Notes: a model not told the origin generated them from the letters alone. Shown: positions 1 to 20,298, counted from the first letter of the stretch. The stretch is 25,434 bases of DNA from an uncultured Actinomycetes bacterium (GCA_900315165.1 OMXZ01000026.1:1-25434); one strand, 5' to 3'. Made by a program: numbers and translations.

Positions 1-156
1 CGCGTAGGTGCGCTCCAGGACCTGGTTGTGCTTCTCGACCTTCTCCGTGAGGGCGTCGAGCTTGACCTCCATGACGGCTCTGCTCTTAGAGTTGGAAAGG
101 ATCACCCCAATCAGCGTTACGACACCGGTAATGCACGCCACGATGATTGACTCCAT
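1..156 (-). CDS. small membrane/coiled-coil protein, C-terminal part lost at window edge (N-term MESIIVACITGVVTLIGVILSNSKSRAVMEVKLDALTEKVEKHNQ...)
   Basis: The ATG at 156-154 on the minus strand is preceded by GGGAGG 8-9 nt upstream. There is one hydrophobic helix followed by a charged helical segment. The frame stays open to position 1. It is absent from the ORF track only because it runs off the window. Only the topology is holin- or XhlA-like. Confidence 0.3.
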   Translation of the reverse strand, partial: MESIIVACITGVVTLIGVILSNSKSRAVMEVKLDALTEKVEKHNQVLERTYA

Positions 157-163
157 AGAAGAA

Positions 164-202
164 CTGCCTCCCGAGATCGACTTTTCGTCCTCGGGAGGCA
201 GT
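164..202. terminator. 12-bp perfect inverted repeat hairpin (ctgcctcccgag ... ctcgggaggcag) between two co-directional minus-strand genes; it also contains the GGGAGG RBS of the downstream gene
   Basis: The stem and 15-nt loop are read directly from the sequence. It lies 40 nt downstream of the stop of the 244..912 gene. Confidence 0.35.
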
Positions 203-243
203 TTCTGACTGCGTCACAAATTCAGTTTTTGCTGGCGAAAGCG

Positions 244-912
244 TTAATCGTCTACAAGGTATTTCTCCGCAAAGGCATCCGCGTCGTAATCGTCCTCTTC
301 GGGCTCATAGACCGTTGCAAGCCCACGCTCAACAAGGTAGTCGAGCATTGCCTCGTAAACGTCCCGCTCAGTCTTCCACTCCATGGCTTCCTGCATGTCA
401 ATGAAATATTCGGGTGTGCAGTTGGGAAACCATGCGCTAAGCACCTTAGTCGTCATGCGGTCTAGTTGGTCCTTAATCCTTTGTTGTACGTTCACAGGCT
501 TGGAGCTGAATTCTTCCCATGAGATTCCGTGCAGTAGCAAGGTATCCTTGAGGTGGTCTCGAACTGCCACACCTTCTTGCTCGCGATGTAGGTATGGGAA
601 GTGCTTTGGATCCAGGTAAGTGTCTCGCCAGTAGTCACGAACCCCCTCTTCGTCCATGACTGGCAAAGCCATTGTCCAGGAATACTTACCGGCAAGATAA
701 TCGGGGTGTACGTTTATACGACGCGCGATTCGTTCGAGCAGATCGGCGTCAATCTCTTTCGCCTTCACGGCCCTGCCTATAGTCTTGTCCGTCTTCCCAA
801 TCTCCTCGTCCTTGCCAAGCTGGCGGATGCTCGATCCTTGCTTTTTGATGACCCATTTGAACCATTCGGGATCTATCGGGACGCTGAATTTCTTGTTTGC
901 GCTGTCGTCCAT
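244..912 (-). CDS. hypothetical protein with N-terminal XRE/Cro-C1-type helix-turn-helix and an acidic C-terminal domain
   Basis: This is the 227-aa ORF in the track, trimmed to the ATG at 912 (GAGGAT RBS 9 nt upstream). The 927 start is a GTG. The segment SIRQLGKDEEIGKTDKTIGRAVKAKEIDADLLERIARRINVHPDYLAG matches the XRE HTH pattern. GC is lower than in the prophage core. Confidence 0.5.
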   Translation of the reverse strand: MDDSANKKFSVPIDPEWFKWVIKKQGSSIRQLGKDEEIGKTDKTIGRAVKAKEIDADLLERIARRINVHPDYLAGKYSWTMALPVMDEEGVRDYWRDTYLDPKHFPYLHREQEGVAVRDHLKDTLLLHGISWEEFSSKPVNVQQRIKDQLDRMTTKVLSAWFPNCTPEYFIDMQEAMEWKTERDVYEAMLDYLVERGLATVYEPEEDDYDADAFAEKYLVDD

Positions 913-1083
913 ATCTTTTATCCTCACAATGCCGACATTTATTTGTCTGCAACTGTAGCGTTCTGATTCGGTTTGGTGTACTATGCCCTTGGGCCCATTG
1001 CAGACTTTCTAATGTCCGCAGTCAGATAATAACCGATAGACGAGTCTCACACAAGACCATCAACAAGTAGAGAGGCATGATAC

Positions 1084-1410
1084 ATGAACACCGTTTGTTC
1101 CCCTGAGTATTCCGACAATAGGCGCTATGAGTTAATCCGGGCAAACAACCTGGACATGGCGAAAAGCGTCCTGGGCAAGGCTTTGGATGCTAACCAGGCC
1201 ATTGCAATGCGCCAGCTTGACGTTTATTCCATGCAGGCAGACGAGGCAGAAGCAGCAGCGTTGAGTGATAACCTCGACGAGAGCCAGAAGATTGCTGCAG
1301 TTAAACGCAGCTACGCGATAAGGGCTGATATGAATCACCAGGTTCAACGCCATACGGCACTGAATACGCTGATTGCTTTTGGCTCCATGGTGCTGGAGGC
1401 CGTGGTCTAG
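1084..1410 (+). CDS. hypothetical small protein (108 aa)
   Basis: ATG with an AGAGAGG RBS 8 nt upstream and coding-like composition. No recognisable domain. Confidence 0.4.
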   Translation: MNTVCSPEYSDNRRYELIRANNLDMAKSVLGKALDANQAIAMRQLDVYSMQADEAEAAALSDNLDESQKIAAVKRSYAIRADMNHQVQRHTALNTLIAFGSMVLEAVV

Positions 1411-1447
1411 CGACAAGACAACACATCAACACGACGATCCAAGTTAA

Positions 1448-1478
1448 TTGCCGGCGCCCAACTAATGAGCGCCGGCGA
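1448..1478. terminator. GC hairpin (gccggcgc / gcgccggc, 8-bp stem, 12-nt loop) between convergent genes
   Basis: Read directly from the sequence. It sits between the stop of 1084..1410 (+) and the stop of 1483..2835 (-). Confidence 0.45.
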
Positions 1479-1482
1479 AGCT

Positions 1483-2835
1483 TTATGCAGCAGTAAGGTA
1501 CCCCGCCTGGCCGCTTCGGTCGATCTTCATGTACGTGTATCCCGTGTTCGAGCTCGACCAGACCGTCCCGTTGCCACCCACGAGCGAGCGGCAGTTGTAG
1601 AAGCACTGCGAGCCAGAGATTCCGCTCGAGGGAAGCGTCCAGGTGCTGTCCGCGTAGATCGTCGTGAGCGACGAGCAGCCCGAGAAGCAGTAGAACAGGT
1701 CCGTGAGCGTCGATGGGTCGAAACCTCGGAAGTCGAGCGTGGTCACCGCGCAAGAGCTGAATGTGTAGCGCATCTGTCGGACACCTGAGAGGTTGCCAAG
1801 CCCGTTGATGCTCGCGAGATTCGTGCAGCTGTAGAACAGGTAAATCAGGTTCAGGTAAGAGAACGTCGACATGTCCGCAGCGAAGGTCGCGCTCGTGAGG
1901 TATTGGCGGTGCGTCGGCCCGGCCATGCCGTCCCAGGGAGTGAAACCGGAGGCACGGAGTGTACGCGTCGGATCAGGGATGGAGGAAGCCGTCAGCACCG
2001 CCTCGCCATCGTCGTAATAGTGAGCCCAGAACCACGTTCGCGCATCGGCGTTCGGGTCGGTGAGCACGCCGCCGGCCCCGATCTTGCACACGGTCGCCCC
2101 GCTAGTGTTGGAAGGAACGAAGCCGTCGGTGCCGCCGACGAGGCGGCTGCACCCGTTGAACATGAGCGAGCCCGAGAGCCCCGTGTTGTTGAACGAGGTC
2201 GCGTAGATTGTCTCGAGAGAGGGGCAGCTGCTGAACATCTGCGCCGCGCTCGTGATTCCGGAGAGGTTCTCGAAGCCGGAGACCTCGGTCATGCTCTGGA
2301 AAGCGTTGAACAGGTAGTCCGCCTTCCTCATGCCGACCTGTGGCCAGGAGGAGTGGATCACGACCTTCTTCACCTGCAGCTTGACGGAGTCATACGGTCG
2401 AGCCGCCGCCGACGAGTAGCCTGCAGGGTCGATCTCCCAGGCGTTAACGGGCACGCCGCCGGAGTAGCAGTGTCGCCCGTCCACGTAGTTGAACTCCAGG
2501 GTGCCGAGGGAAGTCAGCACGGCCCTCGGCTTCAACCCGACGTCCCACTCGAGCGCCAGGATGGCTGCAGCCATGTCTCCCGGCTGGTAGCGGGTGGAGA
2601 GCCCGTTCTGCCCGCGAATGGCAGCGGCGATGTCCGAGAAGATCGACTCGGGCAGCACGCCGGACTCGAGCGCCATGTACGGCTGCTCCTGGTAGTCGCC
2701 GGCGTCGGTTCCGTCGAGAGCCGACACTGCGGCAGCCATCTCGCGGGGCTTGTACAGCGTGGCCACGCCGGCCTTGTAGCGGATCGCGTTGGCGATGTCG
2801 GTGAGGATGGATGTCGAGACGGTTCCAACAGCCAT
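1483..2835 (-). CDS. phage tail fibre / receptor-binding protein: N-terminal tandem 'IANAIRYKAG..Y.P.EMAAAV.AL' repeats plus C-terminal BspA-type leucine-rich repeats (F..C..L..I motifs)
   Basis: The 450-aa ORF starts 2 nt after the stop of the collagen-like gene. The N-terminus has two copies of the AIRxKxG...YxPxxMAAAIxAL motif common in gut prophage fibre N-termini. The C-terminal about 300 aa carries repeated FSSCxSLxxI / FxGCSxLxxI units (LRR_5/BspA-like). Confidence 0.7.
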   Translation of the reverse strand: MAVGTVSTSILTDIANAIRYKAGVATLYKPREMAAAVSALDGTDAGDYQEQPYMALESGVLPESIFSDIAAAIRGQNGLSTRYQPGDMAAAILALEWDVGLKPRAVLTSLGTLEFNYVDGRHCYSGGVPVNAWEIDPAGYSSAAARPYDSVKLQVKKVVIHSSWPQVGMRKADYLFNAFQSMTEVSGFENLSGITSAAQMFSSCPSLETIYATSFNNTGLSGSLMFNGCSRLVGGTDGFVPSNTSGATVCKIGAGGVLTDPNADARTWFWAHYYDDGEAVLTASSIPDPTRTLRASGFTPWDGMAGPTHRQYLTSATFAADMSTFSYLNLIYLFYSCTNLASINGLGNLSGVRQMRYTFSSCAVTTLDFRGFDPSTLTDLFYCFSGCSSLTTIYADSTWTLPSSGISGSQCFYNCRSLVGGNGTVWSSSNTGYTYMKIDRSGQAGYLTAA

Positions 2836-2837
2836 GA

Positions 2838-4331
2838 CTAGAACTCCTCTTCTTCGAGGTTCGCCAGCGCCGCGATTGCGTCGTCGACGTACTGCTTGGT
2901 GGCGTAGCTCGTCAGGTCGATCGAGAGCGTGCCGCCAGAATAAGAGAGCGGGCTCTGCGCGTTGATGGTGGGCGTCGTTCCCGCCGGCCCCTGCGGACCC
3001 TGCGGTCCCGTGGCCCCCGTCTCGCCCTTGAGGTTGTGGAAGGCGAATGCGAACGTCCTGGCAGACGCCGTGCCGCCGAGCGTGACGTTCACGGAAGGCG
3101 TGCCGGTAGACGAGTCGACGGTGGCCGAGGCGCCGGTGATGGTCGCGTCCGCGCCGTCGTCGCCCGTGTCGCCCTTGGGTCCCTGCGGTCCTGTGGCGCC
3201 GGTCGCGCCGGTCTCGCCCTGTGGCCCCGTCTCACCCTGGGGGCCGGTCTCGCCCTGGATCCCCTGGATGCCCTGTGGCCCACGAAGGTCGGCCGAGCTC
3301 GTTCCCGACGCGCTTGTCACGGTCAATACCGAGCCGTTCCAGCTGTGCGTGCAAGGCGTGCCGTCGGCGCCGGCAGGCCCCGTCGCTCCCTGCGGCCCAG
3401 TCGGACCGGTCGCGCCGGTATCTCCCGTGTCGCCTTTTGGCCCTTGCGGTCCTGTGGCACCAGTCAACCCTTGGATTCCTTGCGGTCCCTGCTCGCCAGT
3501 GTCGCCCTTCGGCCCTTGCGGTCCCGTGGCGCCAGTGGCTCCCGTATCGCCCTTGTCACCCTTCGGGCCGGTGAGGCCCTGGATGCCCTGTGGCCCCTGC
3601 TCGCCCGTGTCACCTTTCGGGCCCTGGGGGCCGGTCTCGCCGGTGTCACCCTTGTCGCCCTTCACGCCCTTGGCCACGTCGGCCGTAGTCGTGCCGTTCT
3701 TGTCGGTGATCGTGATGGTGCAGCCGCCCTCGGTCTGCGTGACGGTGGCCGTCGGGCTGAAACCATCCGCGCCGTCGTAGTCTCCGCGCTGCGCAGCGGC
3801 CTGGATAGCAGCCGCGACAGCACTCGCGCTGTCCGCCGCATCCTCAGCGGCCTCGGCCGCCTCGTTGGCGGCGTCAGCGGCCTCGTTGGTGACCTCGATC
3901 GCGCCCTCGTAGCGCTTGATGGTCTCGACGAACAGTGTGAAGCCGTCCTCGCTCTCGGTGCCGCCGATGATGACGGGCTCAACCCGGATCGTGAACGCCC
4001 TCGTGGAGATGGACTTGTCATCCCAGCTCACCATGCACTGCGCGTCGACCGCGCCCTCGGTCTCCTGCATGGCCGCCGGATAGTAGACAACGTACTGCCC
4101 AAGCGAGGCGTCTATCTCCGCCATGGGCTCGCAGCCGCGCCTGCCGGTCGCCTTGTGCCGCCAGATGAAGTAGACCTCGGCCCCCGTCAGGTCGGATGCG
4201 CGTCCGCCCTGCCGAACGTGCAGCTCAAGGCCGCGCCCCGTGGCGTCCGCAGGCAACGCCACCAGGAAGTCGCCCAGCCGCTCGTCGGCCGAGTCCCATA
4301 TGATCGTGTGAAGTCCGTACCCGTCGAGCAT
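2838..4331 (-). CDS. collagen-like tail fibre with BppU-like N-terminal domain (baseplate upper protein family)
   Basis: The track ORF 2838..4778 is trimmed to the ATG at 4331, which has a GGAGAGGGGGG RBS. The upstream 150 codons are Arg/Gly read-through across the TetR gene. An alternative start is the GTG at 4379, which overlaps the TetR stop. There are more than 60 G-X-Y triplets ([22 protein letters not shown], repeated) and a C-terminal Thr/Ser-rich domain ending EEEEF. Confidence 0.7.
2990..3700. repeat. DNA-level tandem/direct repeats produced by the collagen G-X-Y coding region (e.g. duplicated block encoding [17 protein letters not shown])
   Basis: Repeated ggtcc/ggccc/cttgcggtcc 9-mers are visible in the sequence. 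They give rise to the spurious Pro/Cys/Gly-rich plus-strand ORF 2962..3780. Confidence 0.6.
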
Positions 4332-4936: not shown

Positions 4937-4946
4937 ACGCGCCACC

Positions 4947-5011
4947 TCCCGTAATAGTAAAGATCCGCAGGTTCTTTCAGTTTTCCCGTAATAGGAAAGC
5001 AATTACTATTT
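4947..5011. promoter_or_regulatory. tetR 5' region with two 16-bp direct repeats (tcccgtaatagTaaag at 4947-4962, tcccgtaatagGaaag at 4984-4999) and an AATAGTAA/TTACTATT inverted pair; candidate operator/promoter
   Basis: The repeats are read directly. The first repeat abuts the tetR Shine-Dalgarno sequence. The region is AT-rich and intergenic. Confidence 0.4.
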
Positions 5012-5044
5012 GAAGCAGCATAGCACAGGAAGAAGGAGGAAAGC

Positions 5045-5131
5045 ATGAGCATGGCTGACGTGTTCTGGTACGCGTGGCCCTGGGTTGTTGAACGACAAAT
5101 TGCGGACACCTCCCGGCCTCGCATTATTTAA
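5045..5131 (+). CDS. 28-aa Trp-rich small ORF (MSMADVFWYAWPWVVERQIADTSRPRII) divergent from tetR; possible leader/upstream ORF of the HXXEE gene before transposon insertion
   Basis: A perfect AGGAGG lies 5 nt upstream of the ATG. The TAA stop overlaps the proposed transposon insertion point. It is too short for the ORF track. Confidence 0.25.
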   Translation: MSMADVFWYAWPWVVERQIADTSRPRII

Positions 5132-5157
5132 TATGCGCCGCCGTTCCCTGCGCATGA

Positions 5158-5191
5158 GTTGCGGGGGCTGCCATGCGGCGGCCCCCGCAAC
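5158..5191 (-). terminator. strong GC hairpin (gttgcgggggctgcc atgc ggcggcccccgcaac, 14-bp stem with 1 mismatch) just downstream of the last gene of the transposon operon
   Basis: Read directly. No U-tract, as is common for terminators in high-GC bacteria. It lies inside the proposed left end of the element. Confidence 0.4.
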
Positions 5192-5208
5192 GTAGGCCGG
5201 TCATCGTC

Positions 5209-5472
5209 CTAGTCCACGAGGTTGTAGCGCGCAAGGCGGTCGGCGAACGCCCTGAGCCTCCTCGCGACGTCCGGGAAGTCGAGGTCGAAGCCGCGGACGG
5301 TGACCTCGATGACGGGGTCGGCCGGGAACCCCGACACGCCGAACGCCCAGTCCTCGACCTCGAAGTCGATGTCGGGGAGCCTCACCCTGACCCTGACCGG
5401 CGTCCCCGGCGGGCACTCCGCGAGCCACTCCGACAGCCACCCGGCCTCGTTCGCGCGCACCGCCCCCGTCAC
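5209..5472 (-). CDS. small hypothetical protein (87 aa, VTGAVRANEAGWLSEWLAECPPGTPVRVRVRLPDIDFEVEDW...) translationally coupled to the ATPase
   Basis: The GTG start overlaps the ATPase TGA stop as GTGA. This is the C-terminal part of track ORF 5209..6090. Its sequence looks protein-like, in contrast to the Arg-rich upstream part. No recognised domain. Confidence 0.35.
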   Translation of the reverse strand: MTGAVRANEAGWLSEWLAECPPGTPVRVRVRLPDIDFEVEDWAFGVSGFPADPVIEVTVRGFDLDFPDVARRLRAFADRLARYNLVD

Positions 5473-6281
5473 AGTATCGCCAGCTCGTCGGCCGCGCAGC
5501 GCACCATCTCGGCGTCTATCGCCCTCGCCCTCTGCTGCGCGCCTATGGTGAGGGCGTTGGTCAGCACCGAGTTGAGCCGGCGCACCGAGCCGCCGGAGCA
5601 GCCGTGGGCGCCGGCGAGCGCCGCGTCGTCGAAGATCTCGGGGTCGGCGCCGACCCTGAGCAGCATCGAGCGCGCGTAGTCGGCGGCCTCGGCCCCGTCG
5701 AGCCCGCGCATGCGGTAGCTGGCCACGAGGCGCTGCCTGAGCGACTCGTGGGGCTGGCGCGACAGGTACTGGGCGAGCACCGAGTGGCCCACCAGCACGA
5801 TCGCCAGCATGTCGCGGGAGTCCATGTCGAAGTTGGCGATCATCTGCAGGTCCCGGAGGACCGACGACTGCAGGTAGTGGGCCTCGTCTATGACCAGGGT
5901 CACGCGCTGGCGCCTCTCCTCGACGAGCGAGCGCACGCACGCCTGCACGTCGCGGAACATGTCCGACTTCTTGAAGCAGGGCTCCACGCCCAGCCCCTGG
6001 CAGAGCTCGCGGTAGAACTCCATGTTGGTGACGGTCGACAGGCACAGGTAGACCAGGCGGTTGGCGTTGGGGTTGAGCCCGTCGGCCCACGTGCGCACGG
6101 CGAAGGTCTTGCCCACGCCGGGGTCGGCGGTTATGAGGCCGATCCCGCCCGTGCGGGCGAGGTGGCCCAGGCGCGCGTGCACCTGCCTCAGGTCCTCGGT
6201 CGGGTGGGCCATGTCGGCCGGCAGCCCCTTCGCGAACGGGTTGCGCGACATGTTGTAGAAGCGCAGGAACTCCTCGGCCAT
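5469..6281 (-). CDS. AAA_22-type transposition ATPase (TniB/TnsC/ExeA-like)
   Basis: Walker A DPGVGKTF and Walker B LVIDEAHYL are present. Length is 270 aa. It lies immediately downstream of the transposase with a 4-nt gap. Confidence 0.75.
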   Translation of the reverse strand: MAEEFLRFYNMSRNPFAKGLPADMAHPTEDLRQVHARLGHLARTGGIGLITADPGVGKTFAVRTWADGLNPNANRLVYLCLSTVTNMEFYRELCQGLGVEPCFKKSDMFRDVQACVRSLVEERRQRVTLVIDEAHYLQSSVLRDLQMIANFDMDSRDMLAIVLVGHSVLAQYLSRQPHESLRQRLVASYRMRGLDGAEAADYARSMLLRVGADPEIFDDAALAGAHGCSGGSVRRLNSVLTNALTIGAQQRARAIDAEMVRCAADELAIL

Positions 6282-6285
6282 GCCG

Positions 6286-7590
6286 CTACGCCCCCTCCCC
6301 GGCGCCCCAGTCGATCGAGTACGGCCGCACCCGCGGGGCCTCGGAGTTGGCGGCCTTGTCGGTGGGCGCGAGCCGCCGGCGCGAGCCGTCGGGCATGGCC
6401 AGCCACACGTCGCCCTCGCGGCCCGGCGTGAAGCGCAGCTCGACCCGCTCGCCGACGAGCCCCATCGGCACGTCGTAGAGCACGTGGTCGACGCGCACGG
6501 TGGCGTCGTTCGCCACCTTGCGCGTGACCCGGTTGCGGAAGGCCTCGTCGAGGGCCCCCTCGCCGCCGTCGAGGAAGCGCAGGCGGTCGGCCTCGGCGGC
6601 GAAGGCCTCGTTGGGCGCCAGCCCGGTGGACGAGTGGACCGCCGAGTTGTATGCGGCGACCCACCTGGCCAGCGCCGAGTTGAGGGCGTCCAGCGACTCC
6701 CTCGCCTCCTCGGGCAGCACCGACAGGAAGCGCATGCGGATCGTGCGGTTGAGGCGCTCGACCTTGCCCTTCGCGGCGCCGTCGCGCACCGCGGCGTGCA
6801 GCAGCACGATGCCCAGGCCGCCGCAGATGAGCGAGAGCTGGGCGTTCCTGTACGGCCCGCCGTTGTCGACGAACAGCCTCTCGGGGACCCCGTGCGACGC
6901 CACGGCGGCGCGCAGCGTCCCCTGGAAGCTGGCCGCGTCGTCGCGCGCCACGAAGCGGGCGGCCACGACCTTGCGCGACCTGTCGTCGATGATCGCCTGC
7001 AGGTAGGCGCGCCGGGGCGGCTGCCCCACGTGGGGGCCGTGGAGCGTGTCGGCCTGCCAGATGCCGTTGACGCGCGCCGCCTCGAAGGCGCGCCGGTCCT
7101 TGGCGGGCGCCTCCCCCCCGGGCAGGGGGTTGGCCCTGAACCACCGCTGCACAGTGGCCACCGAGAGCTCGCCCGCGGCCACGTAGCCCTCCTCCACCAG
7201 CCGCTCGTGGACCATCTTGGCGCTGATGCCGGGGTGCTCGGCGCGCATGGCCTGCACGTCGGCGCCGAGGTCGGCGTCGATCCGCCTGCTCGTGCCCAGG
7301 TCGCTGCGGCCCTTGGGCATGAGCCCCTCGAAGCCGAGCTTGAGGTACCTGCGCCTCCAGCTGGCGAGCGTCGAGGGCTTGAGCCGCACCCTCGTGCCGT
7401 CGGGCAGCCCGACGGGCTCGGCGCACACCCTCCTGAAGTACTCGGCCATGCTGGCGTCCGGGTAGGTCCCGTTCACCGCGGGCGCTACGAGCCCGAACTT
7501 GTACTCGGCGAGCTCGACCCGCCTCTTCTCCTTGGCGTCCACCGCCACACACCGTCCTCTCGGTCGCGTCGCGCACCATTGCGCGCACAC
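6286..7590 (-). CDS. DDE (rve-fold) transposase with Mu-transposase-type C-terminal domain (TniA/TnsB/Tn552 p480-like)
   Basis: The catalytic triad context is WQADTLHGP ... FVDNGGPY ... KGKVERLNRTI. The C-terminal segment ATVRVDHVLYDVPMGLVGERVELRF resembles the Mu C-terminal beta-barrel domain. The true start may be an internal GTG (VAVDAKEKRR...). Confidence 0.8.
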   Translation of the reverse strand: MCAQWCATRPRGRCVAVDAKEKRRVELAEYKFGLVAPAVNGTYPDASMAEYFRRVCAEPVGLPDGTRVRLKPSTLASWRRRYLKLGFEGLMPKGRSDLGTSRRIDADLGADVQAMRAEHPGISAKMVHERLVEEGYVAAGELSVATVQRWFRANPLPGGEAPAKDRRAFEAARVNGIWQADTLHGPHVGQPPRRAYLQAIIDDRSRKVVAARFVARDDAASFQGTLRAAVASHGVPERLFVDNGGPYRNAQLSLICGGLGIVLLHAAVRDGAAKGKVERLNRTIRMRFLSVLPEEARESLDALNSALARWVAAYNSAVHSSTGLAPNEAFAAEADRLRFLDGGEGALDEAFRNRVTRKVANDATVRVDHVLYDVPMGLVGERVELRFTPGREGDVWLAMPDGSRRRLAPTDKAANSEAPRVRPYSIDWGAGEGA

Positions 7591-7633
7591 GCGCGATGAT
7601 GGGGCAGGCGGGGGGCGGCCGCCAGGCGCCGAC

Positions 7634-8152
7634 CTATGTGGAGGGCCCCGGGGCCGGCGGCGAGGGCCCGCGCGGATTGTTTAATCTGACGCGCTCGGCG
7701 AAGCGCGTGCCGTAGGCGGCCGCGTGCAGCGCGGGCACGGCGCCCACGCCGGCCGAGGCCAGCGCGGCGTCGACGGCGGCCCTCGAGGCGCCGCAGGCGA
7801 GCAGCGCGCAGGCCCGCCTCCTGGCGCCGGACAGCAGTCGCCTGCGCGTCGTCTCGGATATCCCGAACGTACGCCTGACCTCGGCGTTCGAGGCGCCGGA
7901 GGCCCACGTGGCCAGCACGGCGAGCACGAGCGCCTCCGAGTGCTGCAGGTAGGGGACGACGCCCGGCGGGATCAACGCGTGCGTGGCCAGGCAGCTCATG
8001 CACCGCACGCGCCTGACGGCGATGCGCTCCTCGCGGCCCCTGTGGACGACGTGGCGCAGGTAGCTGCCGTGGGGCGCGTAGTTGCCCGGGCAGCCGCAGC
8101 GCGGGCAGGGCAGTGCCAGCGGGTTGCCGCCGCGGCCGTCTTCTCTTAGCAT
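7634..8152 (-). CDS. Zn-ribbon (CPRCG...HGSYLRH...RCMSC) plus C-terminal HTH (AEVRRTFGISETTRRRL) protein, probable accessory/regulatory component of the transposon
   Basis: It is the first gene of the co-directional four-gene block, with a Cys4/His pattern and an HTH-like helix. The C-terminal tail overlaps the inverted repeat TTAATCTGACGC at 7681-7692. Confidence 0.5.
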   Translation of the reverse strand: MLREDGRGGNPLALPCPRCGCPGNYAPHGSYLRHVVHRGREERIAVRRVRCMSCLATHALIPPGVVPYLQHSEALVLAVLATWASGASNAEVRRTFGISETTRRRLLSGARRRACALLACGASRAAVDAALASAGVGAVPALHAAAYGTRFAERVRLNNPRGPSPPAPGPST

Positions 8153-8374
8153 GGTGGCAGGCCTCCCGGGCGATCGCCCGCGGTCGGGGGCGGCGCGCGT
8201 TCAGCTTGCCGGCGTGGTGCGCGCCGCCCGTGCTTGCGTTGTGGTGACAAGCATAGCGGCGTGCGTATTAATTAATTAATTAATGTGCAAAGCTGCGTCA
8301 GATTAATTAATGCGTCAACAAGAGGCCGGAAACGGCGTCAACAGACTGCAGCTCTACACTGGGTGGGTCTGGGG

Positions 8375-9055
8375 ATGGGGATTGTGATGCTCGTCCTGCT
8401 CTTCGCCACGGACCTGTTGCGCGGGTCGGACGCGCCGCGCGTGCGCGACCCCTACTGGCTGGCGTGGGCCGCCATGCCGGCCTACCTCGTCCACCAGTTC
8501 GAGGAGTACGCCCTGAACATAGCGGACGGCAACTACGTCATTGTCGAGCAGGTGTTCGTCAACGCGGGTGGTATCATGGACCTCTCGGCCCTGCCCTTGT
8601 TCCACTTCCCGCTCGTGAACATCGCGCTGGTGTGGGCGGGCGTGCCGCTCGCCGCTTGGCTGGGCGCAAGGCTGAGTAACCCCGTCGTGGCGCTCTCGCC
8701 CTACGGCTTCATCCTGGTCAACGGCCTCATGCACTTCGCCATGACCGTCGTGCGCGGCGTCCCCGTGGCCCTGAACCCCGGCTTCTTCACCGGGACGCTG
8801 CTGTTCTTGCCCCTCGTGGCCGTCGTCATCGTGGCGTGCGCCCGGGGCGGCCTCGTGCGCGGCGGCGGCATCGCGGCCTTCCTGGTGGCGGGGGCCATCG
8901 CGCACGTGCTGCTGGGCGCGGGATACGCCATGTCGGCCGTCGGCGGCCCCGCAGGCGTTGCCGTGCTCGACCTCCTCGCAGGGCTCTCGCCGGCTCTCCT
9001 GGCCTGGGCCTTCTGCAGGATCTTCAAGGTGAAGCTTCCGGGTGGGGATCGCTAG
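8375..9055 (+). CDS. HXXEE-motif polytopic membrane protein
   Basis: The YLVHQFEEY motif is followed by multiple hydrophobic helices. The track ORF begins at 8285 inside the (TTAA)n tract. A start at ATG 8375 or GTG 8363 is more likely. It converges on the Tal-like pseudogene with a 4-nt overlap. Confidence 0.6.
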   Translation: MGIVMLVLLFATDLLRGSDAPRVRDPYWLAWAAMPAYLVHQFEEYALNIADGNYVIVEQVFVNAGGIMDLSALPLFHFPLVNIALVWAGVPLAAWLGARLSNPVVALSPYGFILVNGLMHFAMTVVRGVPVALNPGFFTGTLLFLPLVAVVIVACARGGLVRGGGIAAFLVAGAIAHVLLGAGYAMSAVGGPAGVAVLDLLAGLSPALLAWAFCRIFKVKLPGGDR

Positions 9056-10282
9056 AAGTCCAGGTCAGCCAGCTCGTCCAAATCGTCAATCGCGGTGGTC
9101 ACCGTGCTCTCCACGACCTGCACCGAGGTCGCCACGCTCAGGTTGCCGTCGATGCCGGCCACGTCGTTCTGCAGAGCGGCCACGTCGGCGGCAAGCGAGC
9201 TCGTCACGGCGTAGTCGACCTGCCGCACCGTGCCGATGGTCACGCGGCAGACGACGGCATCCCCGAACGTGCGCACGCGCTTCACGACCCGCGCCTTGAG
9301 CCGCCACTCGGGAGTCATGCTCGAATCAACGACCGCAACCTCGTCGCCCAGCCCACACTCGCCGCCGTCCAGGGCCGCAACATCTATCTCGTAGGAGACC
9401 TTCGGCTGCACCGCATCCACGAACGCCTTCCTGGTGAGCGCGAGCAGCCTGGCAGGGTCGTCGCACTCCGAGAAGATCACCTGCCCGAACGAATGAACCT
9501 TCGCCGTCCTGTCGGCGTTCCAGCGGCCCCACACGAGCCGCGCGTCCTCGTCGCCGACCCAGTTGACGCCGCCGTTGACCTCGCCGAAGGTGAGCTTCTT
9601 TACGGTAGCCGCCCGTGTAACGCCCGTCCTCGTCGGTCACGGGAAGGCCCGCGCCGAACCCGTAGAGCGCCGTGTACACGTCCTGCTCCAGGACCGTGCG
9701 CGTGCATCCTGCCATGTTCTTGCCGTAGGTGAAGCGAAGCCCACGCCAGCTGCCGAGCCTTTGTCTGAAACGGATGGACCGGGAAGCCACGCGACCGCCA
9801 GCAACCATTATCACCGGCTCCACCTCGCCGCCCCAGACCTCGGCCACCCTTCACAGTGCCCAGAGCGCGTTCACGTGATAGAGCACGCATCCAGCCGTCC
9901 CAGCCACGTCGCACGACGCAACCGTCCAGCGCGTGGGAGCTAGCACGACCGCCAACGCCTGCGCCGCAGTGCGCGAGACCAGATGCTGCTCCTCGATGAA
10001 GTCGTCAAGCAGCTCGCACAGCGAGGACTCCGCATAAACCGAACGCAGCCCCTCAAGCGGCTCGTCGGTCCTCACCACCACATGCTCGCACCATACGCCG
10101 TCGTTAAGCCACAGCAGCCTATCGCCCTTCGCAGGTACCTCGCGGCACTCGAACTCCAGCGTGTCCTCGCCGTTAAGCTCCTCGGTGTGCACCAGCTCCC
10201 CAACTACGGGCAGCATCCCGATCCGCTCGTCGAACCGGTCGAACCACCACAGGACCGGAACCGCGCCCGCCATCACAGCCAC
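9052..10282 (-). pseudogene. Tal-like tail-associated/minor structural protein gene disrupted by an in-frame TGA (9851-9853) and a +1 frameshift near 9596-9603
   Basis: Three track ORFs (9851..10282, 9326..9847, 9052..9534) join into one protein-like sequence. The first two are in the same frame and separated only by TGA. The junction of the second and third is at cgtAAAGAAGctc, where frame A stops looking like protein and frame B starts. The N-terminus contains TEELNGEDTLEFE, typical of the N-terminal region of phage minor structural (anti-receptor) proteins. Confidence 0.5.
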
Positions 10283-16327: not shown

Positions 16328-17464
16328 CTACCTCCTTGTCCCGCATTCAGGGCAGAACTTCTCGGAAGGCTGGAACGGCCTGCCGCATTCGGAGCAGAAC
16401 TTCGCAACGGCGCCTGATGATGGATTTCCTTCCGATTCCGTTGCTTCTGGTTTAGGAACACCGCCTGGGCCAGCCGCTAGGTTAACCGTCCCCATGGCGT
16501 CCGACATCGCGCCGCCGACCATGTTGCCGACCGGCCCGCCAACGCCGGCAATCATGCCGAGGCCGATGCCCATGTTCAAGAATTCCCCGACGCCCTCGTT
16601 TGCAGCTACCTTTTCGGCCACATCGAAACCGCGCTCCTGCTGGTACGTGTAGCCCTCTATGCGACGTTTGTCCGCCGTGGCCGTAGCCTCGATGACCGTC
16701 TTCTTAGCCTCGGTCTCTTGGTTGATGACACCTACCTGCTGTTCGATTTGCGCCTCCCTTACATCGGCATACTGCCGGAAGTAGAGCTCGCGAAAACGCT
16801 CGTATATGGGGTCGCCCTCCGGTCGTATGACGGTGGTCACGAGGAACTGGGTCAGCTCGATGCCATACTCAGCAAAATCGGGACGCAACCGGTCCTTCAC
16901 GTCATCGGACAGCTCGCCAAGATGGGCATCCAGCTCGAATATGCTCAGCTTCTGCTGCTGTATCGCCTGGACCAAAGCGGCTTTGACCCTCGTCTGGAGG
17001 AACGCCTTGAAGTACGCGATCAGTTTGTCTTGGGAGAGAATCGCCTCGGTCCCCACGATCTTGACGAGGAGTTTCTTCGCTTCGCGCACGGCGAGCGCCA
17101 TCTCGCCCGAGACCCCGATGGAGAGGGGGAACCCGAATTCGGGCTCCATATACTGCACTTTGGAATTGGTGCCCCAGGCGATGCCCATCTGCTCCGTGAG
17201 GTTGATGAAGTAGACCTCGGCATGGAACGGCGACACGCCACCACTGGGGAGGTTGACAATCTTGTTCACGAGCGGGAGATTCTGGGTCTCGAGCGTGTGG
17301 CGTCCGGGACCGAACAGGTCGAGAGCCTGTCCGTTCAGGAAGAATATCGCCTCCTGCGACTCATGGACGATGAGCTGGGAAGCGGTGTTGAAGTCCTCGC
17401 TTGGATGCTTCCAGACGAATGTGCGGTTGTCGCCCTCATACTTGATGACGTCTATGATGCTCAT
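16328..17464 (-). CDS. SPFH/Band-7 domain protein with Gly/Met-rich linker and C-terminal double CxxC zinc ribbon (COG4260, B. subtilis YdjI-like)
   Basis: It is trimmed to the ATG at 17464 (MSIIDVIKYEGDNRTFVWKHP...). The 17494 start is a GTG. The N-terminal pattern and the C-terminus KFCSECG...KFCPECG match YdjI-type proteins. Confidence 0.8.
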   Translation of the reverse strand: MSIIDVIKYEGDNRTFVWKHPSEDFNTASQLIVHESQEAIFFLNGQALDLFGPGRHTLETQNLPLVNKIVNLPSGGVSPFHAEVYFINLTEQMGIAWGTNSKVQYMEPEFGFPLSIGVSGEMALAVREAKKLLVKIVGTEAILSQDKLIAYFKAFLQTRVKAALVQAIQQQKLSIFELDAHLGELSDDVKDRLRPDFAEYGIELTQFLVTTVIRPEGDPIYERFRELYFRQYADVREAQIEQQVGVINQETEAKKTVIEATATADKRRIEGYTYQQERGFDVAEKVAANEGVGEFLNMGIGLGMIAGVGGPVGNMVGGAMSDAMGTVNLAAGPGGVPKPEATESEGNPSSGAVAKFCSECGRPFQPSEKFCPECGTRR

Positions 17465-17480
17465 GTAAAGTAGGCCCCCA

Positions 17481-17620
17481 TCGAAAACGTACACGTTTTG
17501 GAGGGGCGAAAAACTTGGTCGGGCAGGGTTGCAGTTGGCCTATTTGCTGGGCATATGCAAAGGTCGCTAGCGTATAATGACCCACTAAGTGACAAAAGCA
17601 AAACGTGTAGTTTTTGGTGC
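17481..17620. promoter_or_regulatory. two about 24-bp imperfect inverted repeats (tcgAAAACGTacACGTTTTggagg at 17481-17504; gcAAAACGTGTAgtttttggtgc at 17598-17620) flanking a roughly 90-bp spacer that carries a perfect TATAAT (17573-17578) on the plus strand and a perfect TTGACA (complement of 17621-17626) on the minus strand
   Basis: Read directly. It lies between the SPFH operon start and the 3' end of the serine invertase gene. It is a candidate for hix-like recombination sites or repressor operators. Confidence 0.3.
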
Positions 17621-17658: not shown

Positions 17659-18273
17659 TCAGTCATTGCCATCATCGGTGGCATCTTCCTTGAGCCATCG
17701 ATCGAAGGTGCTTGCAGAAACCTTGAGTCGCGTGGCCGCCTCTTGCCTTGTCAGGTGCCCTCCGAGGTAGGATTCCTTCGTGCTCGTATAGCACGCCGGA
17801 CGCTTCTTTTTCGGTCTGCCGAATCGCACACCACGTGCCTGAGCTGCGGCGATGCCCTCCGCCTGCCGCTGCTTGATGTTCTCTCGCTCCATCTGGGCAA
17901 CGTAGGATAACAGTTGCAATACGATGTCCGAGATGAGCACGTTCGTCAGCCCGTCGCGGTGGTTGCGCGTGTCGAGCAGGGGCATGTCGAGAACAACTAT
18001 GGCAGCGCCGCGCTCCTTCGTGAGCAACCTCCACTGCTCCAAAATCTCATCGTAATTGCGCCCGAGTCTGTCGATGCTCTTGATGACGACCACGTCTTCT
18101 GGTCGGAGCGCTCTAAGGAGACGCTGGTATTCGGGACGTGCAAAGTCTTTGCCGCTCGCTTTGTCCATGAACACGTTATCCCGATTGACGCCGAACTCTG
18201 CAAGCGCGTCGAGTTGCCTGTCGAGGTTCTGGTCGCGCGTGGATACACGCGCATAGCCGTATACGCTGCCCAT
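17659..18273 (-). CDS. small serine recombinase, DNA invertase/resolvase type (Hin/Gin/Pin-like) with C-terminal HTH
   Basis: The N-terminus YGYARVSTRDQNLDRQ carries the catalytic Ser. Length is 204 aa, and the C-terminal HTH is RQEAATRLKVSASTFDRWL. Confidence 0.85.
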   Translation of the reverse strand: MGSVYGYARVSTRDQNLDRQLDALAEFGVNRDNVFMDKASGKDFARPEYQRLLRALRPEDVVVIKSIDRLGRNYDEILEQWRLLTKERGAAIVVLDMPLLDTRNHRDGLTNVLISDIVLQLLSYVAQMERENIKQRQAEGIAAAQARGVRFGRPKKKRPACYTSTKESYLGGHLTRQEAATRLKVSASTFDRWLKEDATDDGND

Positions 18274-19296: not shown

Positions 19297-20298
19297 ATGG
19301 CAGGCAACGCCAATCTGGCCCAGGCGAAAGCAGCGCACAAGAGGCCGATGCTCAGCGTGAGCCAGCAGATTGAGCGCCTGAAGGAGAAAGGCCTGACGTA
19401 CGACCTGTGCGACGAGGCCCAGGCTGCCGACATCCTCGCGAAGAAGAACAACTACCTACGCATAACCTCGTACCGAAAGCTATACGAGCGTCAGATGGAA
19501 GGCCCCAACGTCGGCAAGTACGTCAACCTCGATTTCGGCGACCTCGTGGCGATTTCGTCACTCGACAGGCAGCTGCGCGAGGCTTTCCTCACGATGACAA
19601 TCGACGTCGAGCATTTCGCCAAGTTGAAGGTGCTCTCGCAGCTCGAGAAGGAGGGCGAAGACGGCTACGCAATCGTCACGGACTTCTACGCAAGCCTGAA
19701 CCATGCAGGGCGCAACGCCATCCAAGGCGCCATGAAGGTTCGCGGCGGCGAGGGCGAGCGTCACGACGCGTACGCCGGGGACCTCATAGCCCATCACCTG
19801 CAAGACATGCCGGTCTGGGTGTTCCTGGAGGTTATCGACTTCGGGACGTTCGTCGACTTCTACCTGTTCTGCGCAGGCCGATGGCACAACGACGCAATGC
19901 TGCAAGAGCACTACGCGCTCAAGAGCGTCAAGGCGCTGCGAAACGCCACGGCACATAACCATTGCATTCTGAACGGTTTCACGAGGGCCGAGGCACGCGC
20001 AGGGTACACCACGCCGCAAGCCATCACCGACTCGCTGAATGCGGCGGGCATGCCAAGGACGAAGGCCAGGCGCGCCAAGCTCTCCAACCTCCGCATCGCC
20101 CAAATGGCAGCAACCCTGTACTGCCTGAGCACGCTCTGCACGAGCGAGTCCGCCATGGCGCGGCATGCCCGGAGACTCGCCGCGGTCCATGCCGCATACG
20201 AGGCCCATATTGACCGTTACCGCCTGAACAGCTCGTTTGTGTCGTTCTTCGACTTCCTGTTCCGTCTCGTTGACATCTGGGTGCCATGCGGGACATAA
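19297..20298 (+). CDS. abortive infection protein, Abi_2 (AbiD/AbiF-like) HEPN family
   Basis: The N-terminus has the typical motif KRPMLSVSQQIERLKEKGLTYD...NNYLRITSY. The HEPN motif LRNATAHNHCIL is present. Length is 333 aa. Confidence 0.8.
   Translation: MAGNANLAQAKAAHKRPMLSVSQQIERLKEKGLTYDLCDEAQAADILAKKNNYLRITSYRKLYERQMEGPNVGKYVNLDFGDLVAISSLDRQLREAFLTMTIDVEHFAKLKVLSQLEKEGEDGYAIVTDFYASLNHAGRNAIQGAMKVRGGEGERHDAYAGDLIAHHLQDMPVWVFLEVIDFGTFVDFYLFCAGRWHNDAMLQEHYALKSVKALRNATAHNHCILNGFTRAEARAGYTTPQAITDSLNAAGMPRTKARRAKLSNLRIAQMAATLYCLSTLCTSESAMARHARRLAAVHAAYEAHIDRYRLNSSFVSFFDFLFRLVDIWVPCGT

Follow-up and report, generated by a model that had tools for sequence, protein, structure and literature searches.

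The DNA analyzed here is a 25,434-nt stretch from an uncultured Actinomycetes bacterium (GCA_900315165.1 OMXZ01000026.1:1-25434), referred to below as the window. Within it, a divergent tetR/HXXEE gene pair is interrupted by a mobile element that spans positions 5086..8358 and carries all of its genes on the minus strand. These genes encode a 172-residue protein with a DUF6431 domain (8152..7634), a 434-residue DDE transposase (7590..6286), a 270-residue AAA+ ATPase (6281..5469), and an acidic 87-residue protein, orf87 (5472..5209, isoelectric point (pI) 4.6), whose GTG start overlaps the TGA stop of the ATPase gene in the sequence GTGA. A preliminary description of this DNA, made from the sequence alone, had listed four co-directional open reading frames (ORFs) of exactly these sizes with the same GTGA coupling. 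The GC content of about 72% that it gave for the block was also accurate: we measured 71.8% for the element and 60.9% elsewhere in the window. The element originated in a higher-GC background. Taken together, the comparisons described below indicate that it is very probably one complete copy, with its genes intact, of an undescribed family of ATPase-regulated transposons resembling insertion sequences (IS).

The element interrupts an HXXEE gene

An uninterrupted tetR/HXXEE locus was found on three independent contigs (L031, L032, and L033). When these contigs were compared with the window using blastn, each aligned up to position 5085 and again from position 8359, with a 6-nt overlap of CTGGGT. 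The junction sequences of the empty sites are base-for-base identical to those of the window, and the flanks are 98.6–99% identical. CTGGGT occurs once in each of the three empty sites and twice in the window, as a left copy at 5080..5085 and a right copy at 8359..8364. In addition, two independent full-length copies of the element (L036 and L038) match element positions 1–3273 at 88% identity, and the similarity ends there. Because the empty-site junctions and the full-length copies agree, the element was assigned to 5086–8358 (3273 bp) with a 6-bp target-site duplication. A 7-bp duplication was also considered for this copy; it would need a mismatch or a shortened terminus, and 6 bp was kept.

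The termini were further defined with relatives of the transposase, which were gathered from species-representative genomes and metagenomes. Two of the Coriobacteriia loci among them, L003 and L006, have long flanks. The elements at these loci end in 5'-TGTAGAACTGCA ... TGCAGTTCAACA-3' and are bordered by 7-bp direct repeats. Termini of the same type are found in the window at 8358..8347 and 5097..5086, with CTGGGT beside each. The element runs from 5'-TGTAGAG to TTCAACA-3', such that it has TGT...ACA termini, and its terminal inverted repeats are about 12–14 bp long, with separate boxes located further inward. The left, gene-proximal repeat (8347..8358; plus strand TGCAGCTCTACA, element start 5'-TGTAGAGCTGCA) has the form TGTAGA(A/G)CTGCA in L003, L004, L006, L036, L038, L040–L042, L044, and L046. 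The right, gene-distal repeat (5086..5097; plus strand TGTTGAACGACA, element end ...TGTCGTTCAACA-3') is conserved as TG(C/T)(A/C)GTTCAACA in L002, L003, L006, L036–L039, L041, L044, and L047. The two termini of the window copy agree at 8 of 12 positions.

The insertion point lies in codon 13/14 of the HXXEE gene, 40 nt 3' of its ATG, and the element is opposite to this gene in orientation. When positions 5086–8358 and one CTGGGT were removed in silico, an intact HXXEE ORF of 243 codons was obtained that begins at the ATG at 5045 and is preceded by the ribosome-binding site AAGGAGG. The restored protein is 97% identical to the homologue P0001 over 100% of its length and has the same N-terminus; intact homologues P0001 and P0002 both begin MSMADVFWYAWPWVGLGMG. 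The 5' fragment of the gene on the plus strand (5045..5085) retains the Shine-Dalgarno sequence, the ATG, and 13 codons. Its reading frame continues into element sequence, where it closes after codon 28 and so specifies a 28-residue peptide. The remainder (8359..9055, plus strand) has no promoter, ribosome-binding site, or start codon, and the ORF listed for it from a GTG at 8285 is a listing artefact whose start lies within the end of the element. The element was inserted in a gene for an HXXEE membrane protein, duplicated CTGGGT, and inactivated the gene. The HXXEE gene of the window is a transposon-disrupted pseudogene rather than a gene with an unusual N-terminus, and its annotation from 8285 is wrong. 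The divergent tetR/HXXEE control region (4937–5044, 108 bp) is untouched. An inverted repeat, GTTTTCCCGTAATAGGAAAGC, is present at 4980–5000 in this intact intergenic region and is a plausible TetR operator.

These results bear directly on the preliminary description, which had proposed a Tn7/Tn5053/Tn552-type transposon inserted in the divergent promoter, with ends formed by inverted TTAATAyGC repeats near positions 5133 and 8267 and with TTAAT as a 5-bp target duplication. The AT-rich motifs are real and mutually inverted, and the likeness of the transposase to TnsB and of the ATPase to TnsC and MuB is genuine. A transposon is also present in the tetR/HXXEE cassette, as proposed. However, the comparison with an empty site that had been suggested at the time contradicts both the ends and the duplication: the three empty sites set the junctions at 5085/5086 and 8358/8359, so that the element extends 47 nt beyond the proposed left end and 91 nt beyond the proposed right end, and full-length relatives reach the same outer termini. 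In L003 and L006, similarity continues well past the TTAAT motifs, and the AT-rich box is also found internally at 7676–7685. The duplication is CTGGGT, with 7-bp duplications in five relatives, and deletion of the element does not join two AT-rich promoter regions but restores an intact ORF with N-terminally identical homologues. This earlier version of the element is refuted by the alignment with the empty sites. The insertion itself appears to be evolutionarily recent and shared by one lineage, since the identical variant is found at this junction only and an empty site exists with flanks that are nearly identical to those of the window.

Genes and distribution of the family

The DUF6431, DDE transposase, and AAA_22 ATPase genes form a core three-gene cassette within ∼3 kb. 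Every locus of sufficient length has them in this order, about 70 loci in all (29 of 30 loci from the genome scan, most of 42 loci from metagenomes, and four loci on annotated plasmids of Clostridium tagluense, Geobacillus thermodenitrificans, Metabacillus, and Cupriavidus necator). Hosts include Coriobacteriia, with 70–90% identity, and Bacilli, Clostridia, and Tenericutes, with ∼30–40% identity; among Coriobacteriia and Bacillota of the gut and rumen, members of the family are common. Clean 7-bp duplications border five independent insertions (L003, L006, L044, L011, and L084). Many relatives are on ∼3-kb contigs with a boundary that coincides exactly with a terminus (L042, L010, and L013 are examples), a pattern typical of collapsed repeats. 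In five AT-rich Bacillota loci (L009, L021, L034, L051, and L060), an automated scan for duplications gave 6-bp matches made up of A and T only, with poor terminal repeats; these were judged to be due to chance.

The same genes in the same order are recognizable in published data as an unnamed annotation cassette, 'DUF6431 / DDE-type integrase / AAA family ATPase'. Clostridium sp. JS66 has 15 dispersed copies of it, two of which recombined with the loss of 63 kb (bioRxiv 10.64898/2026.08.16.744336), and in Ruminococcus gnavus it has been tabulated beside the nan cluster (PMC12323340). These reports provide annotation only, without ends, duplication, binding sites, or mechanism. More generally, the family was found in the searchable literature only as annotation labels, with no name or functional study, ISfinder and TnCentral being outside the scope of that search. 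The window copy differs from the published cassettes in belonging to a high-GC Coriobacteriia lineage and in having its own fourth gene. Given the five independent 7-bp duplications and the 15 copies in Clostridium sp. JS66, the family is mobile. The comparison now defines its termini (TRTAGA...), a duplication of 6–7 bp, end boxes, an internal box, a core, and a variable slot. Individual members show nesting and decay: the element at L003 1–4080, with the 7-bp duplication GGCAGGC, is nested in what appears to be an IS21-type istA transposase gene; L004 154–2438 keeps both termini in only 2285 bp and is internally deleted; and in L030 6001–9826 the transposase gene is interrupted by ∼3.4 kb of other DNA. 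No match to the element was found when phage and plasmid collections were searched by megablast, and IMG/VR contained neither the exact restored junction nor relatives of the restored HXXEE protein or the transposase. Based on the IMG/VR negatives, the element is not a phage-borne module, though it lies amid prophage-like structural genes.

The transposase is read from a GTG at 7590 in its 434-residue form, and gene callers use a form of 420 residues. Its Pfam domains are HTH_32 (a helix-turn-helix (HTH) domain), rve, and Mu-transpos_C_2, the last of these scoring 29.6 bits against a cut-off of 27 and corresponding to a C-terminal Mu-type barrel. The catalytic residues D181, D242, and E278 have DD35E spacing and are invariant across the family alignment. 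To place the protein among solved structures, a profile made from 22 family members was searched against PDB sequences. The closest solved relative was TnsB of ShCAST, a type V-K CRISPR-associated transposon, with a match (E 7.5e-30) that covers the DNA-binding, catalytic, and barrel regions. IstA of IS21 (E 6e-14) came next, followed by retroviral integrases; TnsB of Tn6677 was matched with E 1.9e-10. A single-sequence search of the PDB with the transposase gave spurious matches only, and the profile was required. Among NCBIfam models, IS481 (NF033577) was best with 159.6 bits, under its cut-off of 224, and the others reached at most 66 bits. No TniA or TniB model matched the element proteins.

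The adjacent gene encodes an ATPase of the AAA_22 family (Pfam, E 9.5e-22), so that the pairing of a DDE transposase having a Mu C-terminal domain with an AAA_22 ATPase, recognized in the preliminary description, was borne out by Pfam. The ATPase has a Walker A motif at residues 52–59 (ADPGVGKT) and a Walker B motif with D132 and E133; both motifs are invariant, as are R184 and R234. It scores 101 bits, under the cut-off, with the ExeA-like model TIGR03015. A profile from 21 members searched against PDB sequences matched MuB (8xvb) over nearly its full length (E 4.2e-10), followed by ShTnsC (E 9e-8), VchTnsC (E 1e-6), and then Cdc6/Orc1. Ratios of nonsynonymous to synonymous substitution (dN/dS) range from 0.18 to 0.49 over the four genes, with the ATPase the most constrained at 0.18. 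These values, measured between copies and not inside the lineage of the window copy, show that all four genes are under purifying selection.

The family resemblance to IS481 deserves consideration because this is the best curated model for the transposase. In one interpretation, the element is an ordinary IS481-family IS whose transposase acts alone, and the ATPase, DUF6431, and orf87 genes are passenger or regulatory genes. Common to both are the HTH and DD35E rve core, terminal repeats starting with TGT, and duplications of a few bp, including 6 bp. The TGT-starting repeats and the duplications of 6–7 bp fit the ISfinder description of IS481, and the Geobacillus relative is annotated as an 'IS481 family transposase' by the Prokaryotic Genome Annotation Pipeline (PGAP). 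On the other hand, classical IS481 elements are ∼1 kb long with a single gene, whereas the element described here has 3273 bp and four genes, three of them conserved across phyla. The transposase falls under the family cut-off and has a Mu-type C-terminal barrel, and TnsB, its closest solved relative, depends on an ATPase. Moreover, the gene order is kept over Actinomycetota, Bacillota, and Pseudomonadota despite transposase identities of ∼30%, passengers are not so conserved, and the ATPase is the most constrained gene of all. An IS481 element with passengers is therefore quite unlikely. An assignment to IS21, with an IstA-type transposase and an IstB-type helper ATPase, is far less probable still. 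It would account for the transposase/ATPase pair, the TG...CA ends with subterminal repeats, a duplication within the range of 4–8 bp, and the similarity to IstA. Nevertheless, the IS21 model NF033546 gives 64.8 bits, under its cut-off of 160, no IstB chain was present among the ATPase matches in the PDB at E ≤0.1, the ATPase has no Pfam IstB_IS21 match, and IS21 has no DUF6431 gene.

In its working, the element resembles the Mu/Tn7/Tn5053/Tn552 group, but it differs from each member of this group in defining features. No TnsA, TniQ/TnsD, or resolvase is encoded within the element, as the preliminary description had observed for TniQ/TnsD and the resolvase, and there is no Pfam match to TniB, TniQ, or a resolvase in 5086–8358. 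With Tn7 and Tn7-like elements it shares a TnsB-type DDE transposase with a C-terminal barrel and a TnsC-type AAA+ regulator, with MuB being closer than TnsC, but it does not have the TnsA endonuclease and the TnsD/TniQ or TnsE target selector. Similarly, Tn5053/Tn402 has TniA, TniB, TniQ, and the TniR resolvase with its res site, a set that the element does not have. Tn7, Tn5053, and Mu all make 5-bp duplications, as compared with 6 bp for the element and 7 bp for its relatives. The membership in this group that had been proposed earlier holds as kinship to TnsB, MuB, and TnsC; it does not extend to the 5-bp hallmark, to the best curated model, or to any TniA or TniB match. ShCAST has the closest solved transposase and the second-closest ATPase, and it shares with the element a small zinc-finger DNA-binding partner that is encoded alongside them.

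Tn552 is a Gram-positive element of the Mu/Tn7 superfamily. Like the element, this transposon of staphylococci (p480, p271, BinL) has adjacent genes for a DDE transposase and an ATPase of ∼270 residues. It makes 6-bp target duplications (PMC3276174), as does the window copy. Sequence similarity is weak, however. In a tblastn search confined to Tn552 of pMW2, two stretches of the transposase were 22–30% identical to p480 (E 4e-15, for a database of this small size), and p271 was matched by only 21 residues of the ATPase around Walker A (E 0.025). Tn552 also has the BinL resolvase, a res site, terminal repeats of ∼120 bp, and another gene order, all of which distinguish it from the element, and it does not have the DUF6431 gene. 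Phage Mu has the closest solved ATPase, MuB, and shares the Mu-type C-terminal domain of the transposase; the ends of the element carry several sites, and its internal site recalls the Mu enhancer/operator. In contrast to Mu, the element is 3.3 kb long, is not a phage, has precise ends in a host gene and no IMG/VR relative, and makes a duplication of 6–7 bp rather than 5 bp. What emerges is a minimal ∼3-kb system that combines a MuB/TnsC-like ATPase with an IS481-like transposase in the absence of TniQ, TnsA, and a resolvase.

Two small accessory genes had been reported for the element, and both are real. The 172-residue protein was described at that stage as an unrecognized Zn-ribbon/HTH protein; it belongs to Pfam DUF6431, and its gene is a conserved core gene of the family and not a peculiarity of the window copy. 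It is strongly basic (pI 11) and has a zinc ribbon of the form CxxC...CxxC (C16, C19, C51, and C54), in which the four cysteines are invariant. Its structure model is confident (pLDDT 85.8) and consists of the zinc ribbon joined to a four-helix HTH domain of the LuxR/GerE/sigma-4-like type. Its first 100 residues are similar to the N-terminal part of ISL3 transposases. A Foldseek comparison of the protein with the PDB returned nothing significant, the best match being the ISCth4 transposase (E 0.07), and no TniQ-like match was seen.

For the second accessory gene, orf87, dN/dS is 0.27–0.46 in its own frame as compared with about 1 or above (0.98–2.37) in the other two frames, and homologues of 80–87 residues fall into 21 clusters, one of them present on 369 contigs. 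Because of the low ratio in its own frame only and the 21 homologue clusters, orf87 is a genuine protein-coding gene. The protein has no match in Pfam, NCBIfam, or PHROG, and its AlphaFold2 model is too poor for a fold search (pLDDT 59). The slot directly 3' of the ATPase gene is occupied in most copies long enough to show it, and the start of the fourth gene overlaps or abuts the ATPase stop. At least seven unrelated types of small protein are found there, and orf87 is the lineage-specific occupant of this variable slot. Corresponding to window positions 5209–5472, occupants are located at L002 2344–2622, L005 6193–6363, L044 5567–5737, L049 2905–3084, L064 2972–3415, L066 3786–4232, L068 4451–4888, L073 1681–2136, and L076 1645–2088. 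No similarity between orf87 and the fourth ORF of L002 emerged when the two were compared by profile, and a Pfam search with seven other fourth-slot proteins gave DUF6618 for one type only. Four of the unrelated types terminate in an acidic run followed by (I/L/P)PF (DDWEIPF, DDGEIPF, DDEPPF/DEDPPF, and DDDLPF/DDGLPF). We take this tail to resemble the conserved C-terminal tip of bacterial single-stranded DNA-binding protein (SSB). The tip is not present in orf87 of the window.

Subterminal boxes and a candidate mechanism

The pattern ATTAAWYAAT is found at only four places in the 25.4-kb window, all within the element (5123–5132, 7676–7685, 8267–8284, and 8302–8311), against 0.00 expected by chance. 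These boxes are the sole AT-rich sites of the element. Two of them correspond to the TTAATAyGC repeats of the preliminary description, which had identified real, non-chance motifs and taken them for termini. Box R1 (CGCATTATTTAATATGCG; 5120..5137, core 5123–5132), the supposed left repeat, lies about 34–50 nt inside the right terminus. Box L2 (8267..8284), the supposed right repeat and '(TTAA)n' tract, is ∼73 nt from the left terminus, and box L1 (GCGTCAGATTAATTAATGCGTCA; 8295..8317, core 8302–8311) is ∼47 nt inside it. The remaining one, box I (gene strand GTCAGATTAAACAATCCG; 7676..7685), is inside the 3' end of the DUF6431 gene, ∼90 nt 5' of the transposase start.

The boxes are conserved among relatives. 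The right-end box keeps its position in each of the eight Coriobacteriia elements compared, and the two left-end boxes recur in seven related Coriobacteriia elements, with the exception that L006 is without the second left-end box. Box I is found at the same position in L003, L036, L038, and L041; it encodes the conserved VRLNN motif of the DUF6431 protein. Several boxes are near-palindromic, such as GCAGATTAAATAATCTGC in L003. In Bacilli relatives, related TTGCGAA(A/T)TAA repeats are found instead, three at each end (3 + 3). Box L2 of the window copy, ATTAATTAATTAATTAAT, has been lengthened by additional TTAA units; at the L2 position, close relatives have one box only, ATTAAATAAC, or CACATTAAATAACTCGC in L036. 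The lengthening amounts to a small tandem expansion of TTAA in what is presumably a binding site for a protein. A GC-rich hairpin encoded on the minus strand (5160..5190) separates the last gene from box R1. By folding, hairpins with stems of 9–12 bp were found at the same place in all eight related elements; their sequences differ and the stem is kept. No T-run follows the hairpin in the window, and it is likely to be a terminator or insulator. No consensus promoter was found by scanning.

Integrase-fold DDE transposases such as those of Mu, Tn7, and IS21 pair the ends of their elements and use the terminal CA-3'-OH groups for staggered strand transfer. Their AAA+ partners bind target DNA in the ATP-bound state and activate the transposase. 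By analogy, the transposase of the element, with its IS481-like HTH and DD35E core and a barrel typical of ATPase-partnered enzymes, would pair the TGT...ACA ends and expose their 3'-OH groups. The MuB/TnsC-like ATPase, bound to ATP, would coat the target DNA, hand it to the transposase, and activate the enzyme. Strand transfer would be staggered by 6–7 bp, and host repair would then make the duplication.

Domains of the LuxR/GerE HTH type typically read near-palindromic sites. The basic DUF6431 protein most likely binds the four near-palindromic boxes as a dimer, because it has a LuxR-type HTH domain, the region upstream of its own gene contains two boxes, and one is located before the transposase gene. 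Bound to the boxes, it would recognize the ends or play an architectural part there, regulate expression of the transposase, or combine these functions. A further possibility is that the DUF6431 protein replaces TniQ-type partners, organizing the complex or its expression via the boxes, and that the fourth-slot protein is a swappable adaptor for host factors; this extension is doubtful. On the same reading, if the SSB-like tip is indeed what it appears to be, fourth-slot proteins would recruit replication or repair proteins to transposition intermediates or direct insertion to replication forks, as TnsE does.

Several points weigh against the interpretation of the element as a complete copy of an ATPase-regulated family with this mode of action. 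At three loci (L036, L038, and L041), both termini are present, yet the flanks do not match and there is no duplication. These are short metagenomic contigs, the missing duplication is probably due to chimeric assembly of a repeat, and the three were excluded from the estimate of duplication length. The (TTAA)n expansion of box L2, which is not in relatives, might impair one end of the element. In addition, the identical variant is seen at one junction only, on 16 contigs from several samples, and no transposition was seen for this copy. The role of the ATPase is read from its homology to MuB and TnsC (E 1e-6 to 1e-10). Transposase N-terminal HTH domains usually bind subterminal sites, so the reader of the boxes could be HTH_32 of the transposase, and their binding by the DUF6431 protein is purely something that we infer. 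As for the route of transposition, a replicative mode resolved by the host, the copy-out/paste-in mode of IS3 and IS481 relatives, and cut-and-paste are all conceivable. Because the element has neither a resolvase nor a TnsA-like nuclease, the three routes are indistinguishable. Finally, ISfinder or TnCentral may hold a named member of the family.

Some of these same observations raise the question of whether the window copy is a fixed, immobile relic, possibly domesticated by its host. The identical variant at one junction in all 16 contigs, the expansion of box L2, and the negative promoter scan would all be in line with such a status. However, none of the four ORFs is damaged, the two copies of the duplication match perfectly, neither terminus is missing, and identity of the flanks to the empty site (98.6–99%) points to a recent event. 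We consider a relic unlikely.

Neighbouring genes

Two adjacent minus-strand ORFs, 9851–10282 and 9052–9534, match positions 3–144 and 251–406, respectively, of phrog_12312, a 784-position profile of a virion/tail protein. Since both match the same profile, the corresponding gene looks frameshifted, and it is truncated at the end of the convergent HXXEE gene. The tetR/HXXEE cassette lies within a decayed phage tail module, and no gene of tape-measure size is visible from the head genes to Dit in the window. The cassette is also found in other settings. In L033 (1–10530), the empty cassette is beside genes for a short-chain dehydrogenase, an enoyl-CoA hydratase, and a CoA-transferase, not phage tail genes, and ∼330 nt of the 5' end of a tail-fibre gene remains attached to it. 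In L089 (560–4149), the same element/HXXEE junction is followed by a shortened tetR, a major facilitator superfamily (MFS) transporter gene, and a Y-family polymerase gene, with no tail-fibre gene there; this arrangement represents either a rearranged locus or a chimeric assembly.

Further along the window, 8–12 kb away and outside the element, is a gene for an SPFH/Band-7 protein with a zinc ribbon (16328–17494). The sole resolvase in the window is a serine recombinase encoded at 17659–18273, 9 kb beyond the element, and it is not the element's resolvase. An Abi_2 abortive-infection-like protein is encoded at 19297–20298, likewise outside the element.

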